Source: Psilocybe cubensis (taxonomy: Eukaryota). Taken from it: 64,000 nt of DNA. A program made the position numbers and the translations under genes. Positions within the stretch are counted from its first letter, which is position 1; the number at the start of each line of letters is the position of its first letter. Of this stretch, positions 6,301-17,600 are shown piece by piece. The stretch covers positions 930,001 to 994,000 of the forward strand of contig CM039004.1 in the NCBI GenBank assembly GCA_017499595.2, in the 5' to 3' direction. The notes under the pieces were generated by a model. The model ran no database searches. It saw nothing but the letters and a program-made list of their open reading frames with translations, and was not told the origin of the DNA.

Positions 6301-8202
6301 CGCCTTCCGGGCCACGTGGCGGGGTTGGTCCAGCTTACTAACGGCCTCTAACTGCCTTTCTTAGACACAGCTCCGTTCCCGTTTTTCTCGACTCTCAATC
6401 TCGACTCTCAACTCTCAACTCTCGAATCTCGACTCTCGACTCTCGGGATCGGATCCGCAAGTAAATAATGACCTGACCTGACCTCACCATGTGCACATTT
6501 CTTTATCGATTACGATTAAATACATACATAGATATATACAAAAGCGATAATACAAATACAAATACCACAATCTCTACAATTGCAATGTGCAATGTGCAAT
6601 GTGCAATGTGCATTTCACAAATCACGACCTCAGACGCCTATACTATAGGTTATAGGCTATAGGCTCTAGCTAAATCCTTAAATCCTCCCGATCCATCATC
6701 AATCATCATTCCGAACCTGCGCCTGCTGCTCGACGCTCGTTCCAGGCTGACGGCCTCGAATCGTCCTCGTCCATTTCCTCCAAATGTACACATTCATTCA
6801 TTCGTTCATTCATTAATCAGTATCAGAAAAGAACAGAAAACAGAAAGAGGAAAACAAGAAAATAGAACCGAACCGACTCACCGATCGATAAAGCAGACTT
6901 ATAAGTTTCAAGTTTTATATTAGAGCGCTTTTCTTTTCGGAAAAAGATGGGAAAGATGACCGTACCGTCACGGTGTACCGTTCGGAAACTCGATGTGCAT
7001 CTACAATATATATAACCAAAATTCTAGAATCTAAATCAGTACATACGATGGACAACTCGTGCTATGGAGCTGTGGAGCATCATACCTCATGCACTCATTA
7101 ACTTAAGCGCTCAATATAAAATTATAACATTCAGCGCTTAAATAATTGCTTCATAAACAAGATTTGTTCAGAGTTTAAAAGCCAATTAGCCATTCATCTA
7201 AGAGAATGCGTTCCAAGATCCAATTTGCGTTCTTTCTAAAATACACAAATGACATTTCCCTAAACAAAAATTCTAAATCCTCCATCGAATCCGAATCTCG
7301 TAACGAGTCATCGAAGATTCGAAATGTTTCAAGAAATCCAAGAAATCCAAAATCCAAAATCCAAAATTCAAGAAAGAACAAAAGAAGCAAAAAAAAAAAG
7401 TCCCAAAGCAATCAATCAGTCATGCATGTAAATTCCTAGCTAGCTGTACAAATGGATATGATATGATATGATGTGATAGAATCAAAAATCAAAAAATCAA
7501 GAATCAAAAAATCAAGAATCAAGAATCGAGTCGGTTCAAGACAACACTGAATATTGTAGAAATAGACAGACAGCGAGAGAGGAGAACGCAAGCAACATGT
7601 CATAACCATAAACCCACAAAAAAGAGATGATTAATGTTTTAGATATCTCATGGATGGATGGATTGACAGACGGACAGACGAACGGACGGACGATAAACGT
7701 GTGCGTAAATGATATGATAATGGTGATAATGATGATAACGGTGATATTGACGATGATGACAATGGATGAAAATGATGATGATGATGATGATATGAATGTG
7801 GAATGTGTAACGTGGAATGTGGAATGTGTAACGTGGAATGTGTAACGTGGTCGTAAGTGATGAACATCGTGATATGGATATGGATATGGGATGTGAGGGG
7901 GCAGGCTACAAGGGTCAAGAACTCGATATACATGTGTATGTGGATGAGAGACGATCAGTGATGGATGAAGAGAAAAAAAAATGCAAAAAAAAGTAAAAAT
8001 GGATGGATGAGATAGAACGAAAGAGAGAGAGAGAGAAAGAGAAAAGAAAAAATAACATGAGATATAAATCCAAAGGAAATATCCAGCTTTTTTTGCAAGT
8101 CGGTGTTGACTGAGACTAGGGTGCTCAGATCCAGAGCAGATAGGCAAGGGCAAGGTCAAGGGGCGGAATGTGGAAGCAGGAAAGTGGAAGCAGGGGTAAA
8201 GC

Positions 8203-11634: not shown

Positions 11635-14600
11635 CTACTCCCTTTTCCGCGCCCCCTTTCCCCATTTCTCCACAAGGAACCCCGTCAAATACTCGTACAC
11701 CTCTCTCTGTCCTCCCCTCCGGTTGATGCTATGGTCACTACAGCCAATCACATCAGCCCGTTTCTTCCCACACCACTCCATCCACTCACCTGTCAGTAAA
11801 CATCCTGAATCGGAACCCCCGTACCTGCTCCCGCGTAAACATGTCCAGCAAGTGCGCGCTATTCGCATAGTGCACATTGTCGTCCCCGCTCCCGTGCGCA
11901 AGCAAATAATCCACCTTTTTAAACCCCTCCACATTCGAGATCGACGCATTCACATACCCCCCCGCGTTCAGCTCGGGCACGTTCATGTACCGCTCCGTAT
12001 AGATAGAGTCATACAGCCTCCAGCTCGTCACAGGCTGCGTGTTATAAATAATCATCAGTCTCATCACTCACAGCTCTTTCCGAAATTCTAGAACACACCG
12101 CGACCGCCATAGCCAATGAGTGTATCTTTGCATCCGCCTCTACCACCTTGGAGCTCATGAATCCTCCGTACGACTGTCGTCATCCATCGATCCCCGCATC
12201 CCATCGCGTATCCGTAAATTAGTCGTTACATAGCCGAGCACAGGCGCACGAATAGGATAAATCCAAATCAAAACATAGGCGTAAATCGTCAGTAACCACC
12301 CACACAAAAAAAACTCGACTCCGAGGACCAGTACGGAGTACAGTGTCAATTTCGATTGGATGCCCTTACACGCGCAACCGACCGACCGACCTCCGTACGT
12401 AACGTACAATCCGACAAAGAAGGGTCCAAAAATAAATAAATAATAAAACACAAGCCCACTCACCCATCCCCAAATCCCTATCCTCTTCGGGTCAACATAC
12501 GGTTTTTTAGCCCATGCTCTACCAAAAAAAAATAAAAGGTTCCTTATCAGCACACACACGTTACACCCGGGGAAATTTGAGTCATCACTCCCATCGTAAG
12601 AAAGTGAAAATGAGAGAGAGAAGACAAAAAAGAAACACGCCGAAAAACGCCACACAAGTTCCAGGTCTAGCCAGAACATGTCTAAAAACGTATTACACAC
12701 GTCCAAAAAAAACACGAAGGGGGGAATAAATGGAAAGAAACGTAAAGAGATGAAATGAACACATGTAAAGATTTGAAAGGGAATGAAAGTTGCACTAGAG
12801 AGATTATAGAGTCTCTTCATAAGCGACTTTAATTCTTCCATCCATGCATTCAAACAATCCACCTGGTCTTCGGAGACAAACCACTCTAGCAGCACAGCAA
12901 GACCGGTCACATCATTCCAAAGCTGCCAAAATTGCCAGTAACAATGTTGCGCACGACATCCAGGCCCACCAAAACCGAAACCAAAAACCAAACTGACAAA
13001 AGTAAAAAGTAAAAAGTAAAAAAGAAAGACTAAAATCAAAATCACAGAGTCTCGACCCCTTCCAAAAAAACAAAAAAACAGTCGCCGAATGGCCCCAAGG
13101 GGGTGTAAAAACACCCAAAAAGCATAAATCCCAATGCACAACGATATCCATGGATCAAAACATGCTCCATGGTCCATGATGATCACCCTCCCCTCTCCCC
13201 GCACCCGTCCACAAAGCATCCTCCCCGAACCCAAACCCAAGGGAGAAAATGCGCTCAGCTGTGGACACGGAGACACGGGGACACTGGGACACTCCAGAAC
13301 CTCGAACACGACCTCGACCGTCGTCGGTCCATGTCAAATGACCACGACTACGACCACAACAACACAGCAACAAAGGTAAAGTCAAAGTCAAAGTCAAATT
13401 TGGACTTCGTTTTTCTTTGACATGACCATGACATATAGGGTACATGTCGGGTGTCGGGTGCGTGTGTCGGGTGCAAAAGCGCAATAAAAGAAGAGATTGA
13501 ACAGAAACAGGAGCGCAAAACAAAGTGAAGAAAAAAAAAAGAAAAAAAAAAAAAAAAAAAAAAAACAAGAAAACGCAGAAAAGAACGCTCGTTGAGACGA
13601 GTAACTTCTCTTTCCCTTTCCTTCAAAGCGCGCCAACGCCAACCACCAAACGCCAAAGACCAACCACCAAAGACCAAATAACCAACCGAGTAAAACTATA
13701 ACTGTAACTGTAACTATAACAGTAACAGTAACAGTAGCTGAACGAGCCCACAGCAACCCAAAAAAAGAAATCGGCACAAAAGAGCGAGCGAGAGAGCGAG
13801 AGAGAAAGAGAGAGAGAGTCTCGAGCAACGCTCCAGGCCGAACAGAACAGAACAAAAAAAGAAAGAAAGAAAACGAAAATGAACGAAAACGAACCACTTG
13901 CCCTGGCCCTCCTATTCGCCCATCACACCACCTCCAAACCCAAACCCAAACCACCCGCACCGCACCGCATAACCGAACCAAACAAGACAAACGACAACCG
14001 ACAACCGACAAAAAGATAAAAGTAGCCATTGCATTGGCATTGGCAAGGTATGGCAAGGTACACCAACACACCAACAAACACACACACACGGGCGGAGGGG
14101 GGGCAGTGATCATTGGACACTAGACCACGAGGCTCCGTTGTCTGTTGTCCGTTGTCCATTGACCAATTACAGTTACAGATACAGCGCATTCGGGATCCAG
14201 ACAGACCCAGAACGCACTGTAATGTAATGTGATGTGATGGTGTTTTTTGGAAATATAAAGCGGGGTAAAACATATAACATATAACATATTTTGAGGGGCA
14301 GACCGATACCGATACCGATATGGTGGCGGCCCTCAAAGCAGCAAATAGCGAATGAGAATGAAAAGGCAAGGCAAGGCACAATCGTAGGCAGGGGCAGGGC
14401 GGCGAATTGAAAATGAAGAGATAAAGATAAAGAAAGAGAGCAACGGATATGAAGAAAAAATGCAAAAAAGGAGTCGAAAAACCAAAACGCAAAAAACGCA
14501 AAAGCAAATCTCAAAAAAGAACAACCAACCAACCAACCAACCAAATCACAAATCCTCAAATATCCCAAGTACCAAAAATCGAAAAAAAAAAAATTAAACG

Positions 14601-17600
14601 AAAAAAACCGAAAAAAAACAAGATCAAGAACAAAAACGAGAAACAAAAAACACTCACTTCGCAGCTTCAATCTGATCCCTCGTCTCCCAAAATCCAAGGT
14701 TTCCTTTGACCGGATTACGCAATTTACGCCCTTTGAACCCCGTACCGCGTCCGTCGACCGTGACAGTGATATACTGCAGCCCGCACGCAAGATACTCGTG
14801 CCAGTCCCGACTGAACCTCTGATCCACGAGCTGGCTTACCGGGCCTCCGTACCTGCAAGGTGCGTCAAGTGCGTCAAATGCAAGGGTTCGCACAAAAAAA
14901 AAATATAGAAGGTTCGTTTCAATTCGCGAAACGCATCACAATTTTTTGGTATTTTTTTCGATTTGGGAATAGAATCATCAATGCGGGTGCGATGGTGATG
15001 CCACGTCCCACGTCGTACCGGATTCCGAGGGCCCATGGGTCGCATCCGATGACGATACAATCCGGTCGATTATAGATGACGCATTGAGAATTGAGGCCGG
15101 CGGGTGAAAATAGGGGGTTAGAGCGACGATGATGATGAAAGACGTTGGGGGTTGCGAGTCGAGACCCCCGATCATCAGACAAGGAAGACCCAGAGCAAAA
15201 TGACAGCGGGCGTGTGTGCATGACCAAAGATAGATAAAAGGGAAAGGGAAAAGGTTACACACCCATGAGTAGTAGTGCCCATTCAATTGCGCAAACGAGG
15301 CGGGGGAGAAGTGAGAAAAATATGCATGCGCCCGATTAAAGAAGAGCAAGGAAGAAGTCAGGTGTAAGAAGTAAAGAAGAATGGGGGAGACCAAGGAAAG
15401 AATACAGAAATTAGAGGATTGATTAGCAGCATTCGTATGTTTTGTGGCCCAAGCCGCGGCAAAGTGACAGAAACAATCGATCGCGTAGAGAAATTTCCAA
15501 GAACAAGATGGCGCGATGGATTATGACGATTATGAAGATGGGGGTAGATGGCGGCCCAGATGGAACGCCGAGGCGTACAAATGCGTTTGTGGTTGGGTTA
15601 GCGATATTAAAAGTCGCGCACAGAGGTCATTCATTGAGGCAGCATAAATTGAGTTGATCCAGACACGCCCAGACAAATAGCCAAACAAGCACATGTCGGT
15701 GATGTGAAGAGAGAACCAAAAGAAGAGAAGACGACCGCCCAACATGATACAAAGTGTATGTCATGACATTATAGGCATGTGTTGACCAAGTCATTCGCCG
15801 AGGTAGATAGGACAGGTCGGTGGTCACAACCAGGTGGATGATTGATGGCGAGCCGGGTCGAGTTGGTAGGAGGCACAAGGCGACCGTTGGTTTGTCATTC
15901 GGAAGATTGTGGTCAAATCAAGAATCCAGATAGTTGTCGATTCGTCCGACAAGATCGCCAGTATGATGAGTGTTCCATAAGATACATTGAAACACAGAAA
16001 CAGGACCACGAGACAGGCCAGTGTGCAGGACATTAGAGGACAAGAAGATGAAAAGAGGTTAACGTGACATGGTCAGCAAAAGCAACTACATCAAAAGATA
16101 CCGGTTTAAACAGCGACTTACACACGGAATAGTACAGGATACTTTGTCCGCCCTGAGTCATCCATTCGAGGTGGCCGAAGCTCCTTTACATTTAATTCTG
16201 TGAAAAAGGTAAGGCGGTATATATAATGGGGAAGAAACAAGGGTACCATTTCCGTCAATGATGATCGTGGAATGTACGATATTCGCTGCTTCATACTCCT
16301 GGGTCGCGTTGTTCAAATCGTTGTTGGATTCCAAAACAAATTCGAAGTCTGGAATGATACGGATATTAGTATTCGAGGTCCAAAAAAACGTACAAATGTA
16401 TAGAATAATGCAGGTGTACGCAGCCGTAAAATTAAGTAACCAGCATTCGGTTTAATCGGCGCGAAACCAGTGTGGCAGACCGGCTAGTCAATAGAAAATT
16501 AAAAAATACAAAACTTACCAGTCTTATTGGCGTCAACGACCTTGGTCCAAGGTGTTCCCGGTCCAAGATAGCCTAACACGTAAAAGCCCGCCTCTGGCGA
16601 GAACTTAGCGTTGTAGTAGCTCGGTTTCGTAACATCCGTCAGGGGTTGAGGTTCCACCGCCTTCTGAGAGCTTGAAGTAGGTATTGGCACGGAGAAGAGG
16701 TGTCTCTCTGTCGATGGTTTAGCAGCAACGAAGTATCTGTGGTTCAGGTGTTGTGTCAAATGGATTTTAGATGGAGCCAAACAATGCACTACTCACACCA
16801 AACCTTTCTTCGCATCCACGCCTCTAATATTGCCTGCAACTTCCCATTCTCCGCTCGTAAGGAATTGTGGAGTTTTGGAGTTGGCGGGATTGAATAATGC
16901 AATGTGGTTGTAGCCATCAGGTGTTGGCACAATGTCCAAGTAAGCATTAGTGCCTGCAAATGCCGACAACGCTACGGGAACTGGGTATATGCTTTGATCC
17001 TGTCCATAACAATCGAGGGGTGTTAGTAAGCATTGATTTATAGAGGGAAAGAAAACAAAAGACCAACATGGTCAATCCATCCGCTATCTCCTTGTTCGCC
17101 GTTTTTTCCAAGTTTTCTGACAACAGTGCCTCGTGCTCGAGCCAAAGAGTCGCCTTCCAGCTCAAATAACACAACGTTGCCATCATCTGCATTTCTATTT
17201 ACTTCTTTCAGCATCAATGAAGAATTTCCCACCCAAGTGACTTCCGAGATGATGCTGTTCGTAATGGGATGTCGTTGATCCCAATCAAGAGTGAGTATCT
17301 CGTATTTAGCATCAATGCCAGAGCCCGCGTCGATTTCCAGGTACTTTTCGAGGTCGAATATGTGCACAGAGACGAGTGGGTTAGGGTATCCTGGTTTAGG
17401 ATACTTCATGACGACTTCCTCTGTGTATGGAATTACAGCATTGGCATCTTCAGTCGGATTGTATATCGGGAACGTGAATTCCGGCACCGCTGTTTCATCA
17501 AGGGCAAGGAAAGCAACCTTCTTGGAGTCTGGCGACCACCACAAGGCATAATCAGCGGAAAAGATTTCTTCTTCATAAACCCAGTCTGGGACACCGTGGA

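Follow-up and report, generated by a model that had tools for sequence, protein, structure and literature searches.

In a 64,000-nucleotide (nt) stretch of Psilocybe cubensis DNA (GenBank assembly GCA_017499595.2, contig CM039004.1, positions 930,001 to 994,000 of the forward strand; hereafter the window, with position 1 as its first letter), a DPP4-like serine peptidase gene of family S9B carries a 1,269-nt intron in which the pre-mRNA strand is devoid of the dinucleotide AG over the 1,231 nt that lead up to the acceptor. We interpret this run, with a probability of roughly 0.55, as a real AG-exclusion zone under purifying selection, in an intron whose splicing would at least partly use a branch site far upstream and take the first AG downstream of it. 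The gene lies on the minus strand, from ~18,800 to 11,700 of the window, and the intron and its borders are laid out as follows.

16122 to 16197, minus strand: upstream exon, 76 nt, placed by transcript joints and protein alignment
14853 to 16121, minus strand: GT-AG intron of the S9B gene, 1,269 nt, supported by a joint in two sets of transcript contigs (X10 and X11) and by protein continuity
16116 to 16121, minus strand: donor GTAAGT, which contains one of the intron's three AGs
16086 to 16087, minus strand: sole internal AG, at intron position 35-36, 13 nt 5' of the A of a CTGAC branch motif
14855 to 16085, minus strand: AG-free zone, 1,231 nt of complex, non-repetitive sequence, 62% pyrimidine
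14853 to 14855, minus strand: acceptor CAG, the first AG past intron position 36, verified by transcripts
14658 to 14852, minus strand: downstream exon, 195 nt, placed by transcript joints and protein alignment

Removal of this intron is precise. Four sequencing runs were compared with the window, two of DNA (X6 and X9) and two of transcript (X10 and X11, both consisting of contigs from one study). The latter are not labelled as RNA, and we take them as transcript-derived because their contigs show GT..AG joints of the peptidase gene (13 and 14) that are missing from the DNA runs. One contig each in X10 and X11 has a joint that skips 1269 letters between CT and AC (cut +3), which corresponds to 14853-16121, whereas X6 and X9 span the intron and have no contig with the joint. 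The intron interrupts a Val codon between ..FRV and YGGP.., and ..KYPVLFRV / YGGP.. runs uninterrupted over the junction in 25 of 25 aligned Agaricomycete homologues. Among the 15 joints listed of 18, the intron is constitutive in both transcript runs, and we saw neither lariat-type "go back" joints nor joints skipping the 195-nt exon. The stretch 14853-16121 itself was found in 12 sequencing runs from 5 studies among those listed, four of them possibly the source of this DNA. These results bear out a first-pass annotation of this DNA, which had proposed a real intron with these borders, and each position that it gave proved correct: the donor GTAAGT at 16121-16116, the internal AG at 16087-16086, the branch A at 16073, and the acceptor at 14855-14853. 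Some contig cover also lies within the intron region (14823-15570 in X10, 15061-15701 in X11, and none in either at 15797-16037), and the X10 record extends only 30 letters into the exon, one below the bridging criterion. Coming from contigs of one study, this cover is no evidence for a tailed lariat, intron retention, or an internal start site.

Read along the pre-mRNA strand, the intron has AG at just three positions: 4 (in the donor), 35 (the internal site), and 1268 (in the acceptor). This amounts to 3 AGs against 45.5 expected from composition (T418 C370 A252 G229), with 49 GA and 119 CT in the same dinucleotide count, in agreement with the earlier claims of a strand-specific absence from 16085 to 14855 where several dozen AGs should have stood. 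The probability of meeting no AG in 1,231 nt is 7e-20 by the intron's own composition, 3e-17 by the AG frequency across the other 13 introns of the gene (98 in 3,168 nt), and 7e-31 by the window-wide frequency. The run (1,231-1,233 nt) is 4.8 times as long as the next-longest in the window on both strands, a 259-nt run in a minisatellite; no other AG-free run within the window exceeds 259 nt on either strand, and the longest run elsewhere on the plus strand that lacks any one of the 16 dinucleotides is 456 nt (CC, in low-complexity sequence). Every NAG context is absent from the zone, GAG too, as expected if the spliceosome is exposed to every AG in it. The missing AGs are offset by small excesses spread over AA, AT, TG, and GG and not by any single dinucleotide, which argues for selection against AG and against a single mutational route; nor is pyrimidine richness (62%) an explanation, because GA stands at its expectation. 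The zone starts 13 nt 5' of the consensus CTGAC and stops exactly at the RNA-verified acceptor. By the criterion that we take from Gooding et al. (2006, PMC1431707), it is an AG-free stretch that adjoins the acceptor in use and is far longer than chance would give. The next-longest runs lacking several dinucleotides fall in a minisatellite-like block at 7615-8090, made up of GGAT, GACG, and GATGAT units and GTGGAATGTGTAAC repeats.

Searches for other causes within the intron returned little. Its repeats amount to a single direct pair of 12 nt, two inverted pairs (both short), and four weak rows of tandem repeats, and a blastn comparison with the rest of the window gave only 18- and 22-nt matches (E of at least 0.24). 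Rfam over 12400-16300 found nothing in this intron, its sole match being a sub-gathering hit to mir-268 (E 0.48) in the 2,139-nt intron of the same gene, and Pfam on the intron's five open reading frames found nothing at E <= 0.001, with one match at E = 0.081 that lies below the curated cut-off. The GTAAGT donor rejects a U12-type intron, judged by the U12 consensus. The first-pass view that the absence of AG is beyond chance (P of 7e-20 to 3e-17) is upheld, and composition, repeats, and structure (considered below) do not explain it.

Candidate branch sites were located by motif along the intron.

16072 to 16076, minus strand: CTGAC branch consensus at intron +46-50, with its A at 16073, a motif match and candidate distant branch
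16025 to 16058, minus strand: pyrimidine-rich tract 3' of CTGAC (intron positions 51-100 are 72% pyrimidine)
15322 to 15426, minus strand: mid-intron block at positions 696-800, with CTAAT, CTAAT, and CTGAC in 72-80% pyrimidine
14864 to 14877, minus strand: TTGAC twice within a 9-nt tandem duplication; conventional branch candidates, with A at -21 and -12 relative to the acceptor

By motif match, a branch consensus with a pyrimidine tract stands at the upstream edge of the zone, 13 nt past the last AG. CTGAC at +46-50 is the likeliest candidate for a distant branch, and its position is probably that of the branch in an ancestral short intron. The mid-intron block is a second candidate region, 505-570 nt from the acceptor, and may also be used. 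In all, 8 CTRAY and 9 TTRAY motifs are dispersed along the 1,269 nt. Between intron positions 320 and 511, where the nearest YTRAY on the upstream side is over 110 nt away, there is no AG, against ~7 expected (0.036 per nt).

The 14 introns of the peptidase gene that we used measure 52, 64, 290, 2,139, 1,269, 49, 170, 60, 68, 55, 50, 56, 55, and 60 nt, and three of them serve as comparisons.

12519 to 14657, minus strand: internal control intron, 2,139 nt, AG count 58 (74 expected), with CTGAT 28 nt before the acceptor
12174 to 12463, minus strand: intron of 290 nt, last 140 nt AG-free (P ~7e-4); TACTGAC and CTAAT stand 115 and 45 nt before the acceptor
16349 to 16518, minus strand: intron of 170 nt, last 135 nt AG-free (P ~6e-3), with TTGAC at +28 and CTAAT 17 nt from the acceptor

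The AG count of the 2,139-nt intron means that long introns here need not be AG-free. Counted by context, its AGs number 59, as GAG (24), AAG (13), CAG (11), and TAG (11); 22 are YAG, three of them with a YTRAY 8-60 nt upstream, and no YAG occurs before position 440. The AG-free ends of the 290- and 170-nt introns, together with this late first YAG, are hints that the spliceosome senses AG at a distance, and the two zones of 140 and 135 nt suggest that AG exclusion may be more widespread in this species. The 2,139-nt intron consists almost wholly of short tandem repeats and is packed with microsatellites (40 Tandem Repeats Finder rows). It varies between strains through many indels: the X10 variant of its joint is 2,142 nt (12518 joined to 14661, with three other letters between), and one X10 contig lies inside it at 13895-14346. 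The 290-nt intron, whose best branch consensus is TACTGAC, interrupts the catalytic GW/SYGG motif.

We then compared the intron with its counterparts in metagenome loci, taking 80 of the 592 confirmed loci and examining the 19 that were fungal-looking or above ~33% identity; the other 61 were left aside as bacterial-looking, unbroken ~2.1-kb matches at 29-33% identity. An intron lies at the FRV/YGGP codon in 12 of the 19, six are uninterrupted there, and one (L010) ends just past the donor. Eleven of the 12 introns could be parsed (all but L006), all from distant relatives, with L022 and L024 identical in intron sequence, and they measure 51, 59, 74, 79, 79, 128, 137, 266, 270, 356, and 398 nt. 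In the 74- and 79-nt introns, the branch motif lies at +44 to +55 from the donor, which matches CTGAC at +46 in the window and bears out the earlier suggestion that this motif sits where a normal short intron would place it. Two mid-sized introns have stretched AG-free zones: 108 nt in the 137-nt intron, where CTGAT stands at +42, and 79 nt in the 128-nt one. The four long introns (266-398 nt) have CTGAY near the acceptor, at a distance of 13-43 nt, which places their growth 5' of the branch. The pattern as a whole fits growth 3' of the ancestral branch site in the lineage of the window. The intron at this codon is enlarged (128-398 nt) in six unrelated Agaricomycete contigs (L003, L013, L014, L017, L018, and L019) in which the neighboring introns are short, and two of these, L014 and L017, share recognizable intron sequence.

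If our preferred reading is right, which is the most economical one and follows the vertebrate model, branching would occur at a candidate site far 5' of the acceptor, most likely CTGAC at +46-50, and after the first catalytic step the spliceosome would take the first reachable AG 3' of the branch. A new AG arising within the 1.2 kb would then lead to mis-spliced mRNA with a broken frame and would for that reason be purged by selection. Expansion of the intron would have taken place on the acceptor side of the branch and not on its donor side, so that the intron would have had to stay AG-free at every stage of its growth. By our estimate, each 0.65% of change would add about one AG to a zone evolving neutrally, and at that rate the AG-free state could hardly last long without selection. 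In a narrower form of this reading, which we regard as possible but less probable than not, a minimal lariat loop of 49 nt would form on a short donor-plus-branch unit, with ligation at the first AG, 1,219 nt further 3'. If true, no greater distance from branch to acceptor would have been proposed in fungi; it would be 2.6 times the 471 nt of C. glabrata (Gahura et al. 2011, PMC3239191), and 1,219 nt would equal the longest predicted in any eukaryote. So long a tail could slow the second step at a point immediately before the catalytic exons. The scanning, delay, discard-switch, and tailed-lariat functions that the first-pass annotation envisaged are speculation.

Several observations, from the acceptor region, orthologous introns, yeast, predicted folding, and polymorphism, weigh against this reading. 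The TTGACs at 12 and 21 nt, with a run of T10 just upstream, form what looks like a normal fungal 3' region, as YTRAY motifs near the acceptor, where recognizable in the gene's other introns, are usually 10-28 nt away. Conventional acceptor-proximal candidates are present, in other words (TTGAC at -21 and -12), and according to Gooding et al. (2006, PMC1431707) it is the lack of a conventional branch candidate that separates clear from doubtful cases. All four long orthologous introns, from distant fungi, have normal AG content (observed/expected, 8/11.1, 11/11.6, 21/21.2, and 19/18.9). The first-pass annotation had named long orthologous introns with a normal AG frequency as evidence against its proposal, and for distant relatives this is what these four provide, alongside the two mid-sized introns with stretched zones. 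Taken with the normal AG content of the 2,139-nt intron, they make the exclusion look particular to this intron and lineage and show that, across the relatives sampled, it is apparently not a property of the intron position as such.

In budding yeast, stretching the branch-to-acceptor distance to ~120 nt abolishes splicing, distances past ~55-120 nt fail unless bridged by a stem, and natural long ones rely on stem-loops (Gahura et al. 2011, PMC3239191). The predicted fold of the 1,269-nt intron is no more stable than that of its shuffles (minimum free energy, -279.7 versus -289.7 ± 9.6 kcal/mol in 25 mononucleotide shuffles; z = +1.0). When the 1,221-nt tail was folded alone, the graph distance from branch to acceptor was 12 steps, within the 8-58 of 20 shuffles, so that ordinary folding, with no special stem, would already bring the two near each other. 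A dedicated structure bridging branch and acceptor is rejected on both of these results. The ends of long RNAs generally lie close together, and it could be this proximity in the folded state, and neither linear scanning nor a dedicated stem, that makes the acceptor search feasible.

The X10 haplotype has 22 listed single-nucleotide polymorphisms (SNPs) in the intron, 18 of them common to X6. None of the 22 leaves a new AG, against 2.75 expected from the 12.5% of possible single changes in the intron that would make one (P = 0.053); this is a weak test, and four other dinucleotides likewise gained nothing from the same SNPs. One listed SNP would by itself make an AG, but the adjacent base is changed too. 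Both haplotypes yield the same joint, and both are AG-free as judged by the listed SNPs. All of these SNPs fall at intron positions 600-1260, in the 3' 670 nt, with 15 of 22 in the last 121 nt, and one of them turns the TTGAC at -12 into TTGAT in the X6/X10 haplotype. Over the 5' 600 nt, the X6 contig differs by no more than 6 unlisted letters. The SNP-poor 5' half may reflect extra constraint or mere haplotype history.

The motifs next to the acceptor invite another explanation, in which one or both TTGACs would be the productive branch and AG would be banned so that CTGAC and the CTRAY motifs, acting as decoys, yield no waste transcripts. We consider this unlikely. The placement of TTGAC at -12 and -21 below T10 is the usual geometry of the gene's introns, the CTRAY and TTRAY motifs are spread over the whole intron, the first 440 nt of the 2,139-nt intron are likewise without YAG, and yeast tolerates long branch-to-acceptor distances poorly (PMC3239191), all of which would suit decoy avoidance. 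It would still require, however, that AGs be sensed over hundreds of nt, as positions 320-511 are AG-free and far from any YTRAY, and losing CTGAC by one mutation would be cheaper than keeping 1.2 kb without AG. Moreover, YAGs with an upstream YTRAY are tolerated deep in the 2,139-nt intron, and polymorphism in the intron under study is densest in its last 120 nt, which include the TTGAC at -12.

A cause unrelated to acceptor choice, either a factor-bound pyrimidine-rich RNA or DNA element or some unknown strand-specific mutational process, strikes us as improbable. The pyrimidine content, with tracts that reach 19 nt, and the confinement of listed SNPs to positions 600-1260, with possible extra constraint on the 5' half, could both be accommodated in this way, and Gooding et al. 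(PMC1431707) point to AG-free zones that arise as by-products of repeats. Such a cause is difficult to reconcile with GA at expectation (49 versus 45.5) and normal CT on the same strand, with compensation by several dinucleotides in place of one, or with an intron that beyond the short pairs and weak rows listed above has no repeat, and no Rfam match; nor does it account for zone edges that coincide exactly with the acceptor and with a branch consensus. Chance, or an artefact of assembly or annotation, is effectively refuted by P values of ~1e-17 or lower and by recovery of the stretch in 12 runs from 5 studies, unspliced in the DNA runs X6 and X9 and with the exact joint in X10 and X11.

Comparison with known systems suggests that this is by kind an AG-exclusion-zone intron, for which vertebrate precedents are known and a fungal case is apparently unreported. 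Vertebrate AG-free zones mark distant branch points, and AGs inserted into them turn into acceptors. The branch lies at -175 in alpha-tropomyosin exon 3; PTB exon 11 has a zone of 381 nt and a branch at -351 backed by mutation, with a predicted zone of 590 nt in its Fugu counterpart; and a human PTPRS intron has a predicted zone of 1,126/1,132 nt with candidate branches at -1079, -829, and -288 (Gooding et al. 2006, PMC1431707). Given the last of these, the first-pass annotation understated the reach of such zones in putting it at a few hundred nt. The P. cubensis intron is like the vertebrate cases in its long AG-free stretch up to the acceptor in use and in the branch motif and pyrimidine tract at the upstream edge, and it is like PTPRS in that the zone takes up almost the entire intron (PMC1431707). 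It differs from them in belonging to a fungal gene whose other introns are mostly 49-68 nt, in being constitutive, in having conventional branch candidates, and in that its branch is placed by motif. Our literature search, which did not extend to supplements, where lists of fungal lariat branch distances may be found, returned no fungal AG-exclusion zone.

Among fungi, the distant-branch introns of COF1 and UBC13 in Saccharomycotina have distances of up to 166 nt in Saccharomyces, 471 nt in C. glabrata, and 185 nt in K. lactis; in yeast, stem-loops reduce this spacing and hide silent AGs, and the authors oppose processive scanning (Gahura et al. 2011, PMC3239191). Our intron shares with these an unusually long putative branch-to-acceptor spacing in a fungal setting, but, unlike the stem-bridged introns, it lacks AGs that would need masking, shows no excess fold stability, and does not appear to be bridged by structure. 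In the 3'-end formation of fission-yeast telomerase RNA (TER1), spliceosomal cleavage stops at the first step, and the wide spacing of branch and acceptor is considered to delay the second (cited in Taggart et al. 2017, PMC5378181). The P. cubensis intron is unlike TER1 in that the second step is completed, as the ligated exon-exon joint is present in X10 and X11.

How the acceptor is chosen after branching is still debated among linear scanning, three-dimensional search, and distance limits, and the vertebrate cases are hard to test, as long substrates splice poorly in vitro. The peptidase gene offers a compact fungal system, with an RNA-verified intron apparently under selection against one dinucleotide and, in the same gene, a longer intron of normal AG content as a built-in control. 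It is relevant to the question of how genomes made up mainly of 50-70-nt introns can accommodate long ones, and it suggests that AG content may reveal on which side of the branch site an intron grew. Even if a conventional branch is used, selection would be seeing AGs hundreds of bases from branch-like motifs.

The spliced open reading frame of the host gene, assembled from RNA-supported joints, encodes 906 amino acids (aa) of type-II-membrane form with the serine motif ..GIWGWSYGGF... Its DPP IV N-terminal beta-propeller, C-terminal S9 hydrolase, and GWSYGG place it in peptidase family S9B (DPP IV / dipeptidyl aminopeptidase B). A homologue search returned 463 matches at E <= 0.001; in the best 120 of these 463, to which the following figures refer, most carry PF00930 and PF00326. 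The closest homologue among the matches listed is from Psilocybe cyanescens, at 89% identity across a 194-aa exon, followed by those of other Agaricales at 60-82%. The P. cyanescens gene model P0001 (748 aa, alignment A1) continues over the FRV/YGGP junction and, as a protein model, carries no information on intron length in that species. It ends exactly at ..EAAK, the donor of the 2,139-nt intron, and so is without the catalytic domain; this early stop is probably a misprediction caused by a giant intron in P. cyanescens as well. In P. cubensis, the 195-nt exon (65 codons, in frame) sits between the 1,269- and 2,139-nt introns, in a gene where most of the remaining introns measure 49-68 nt.

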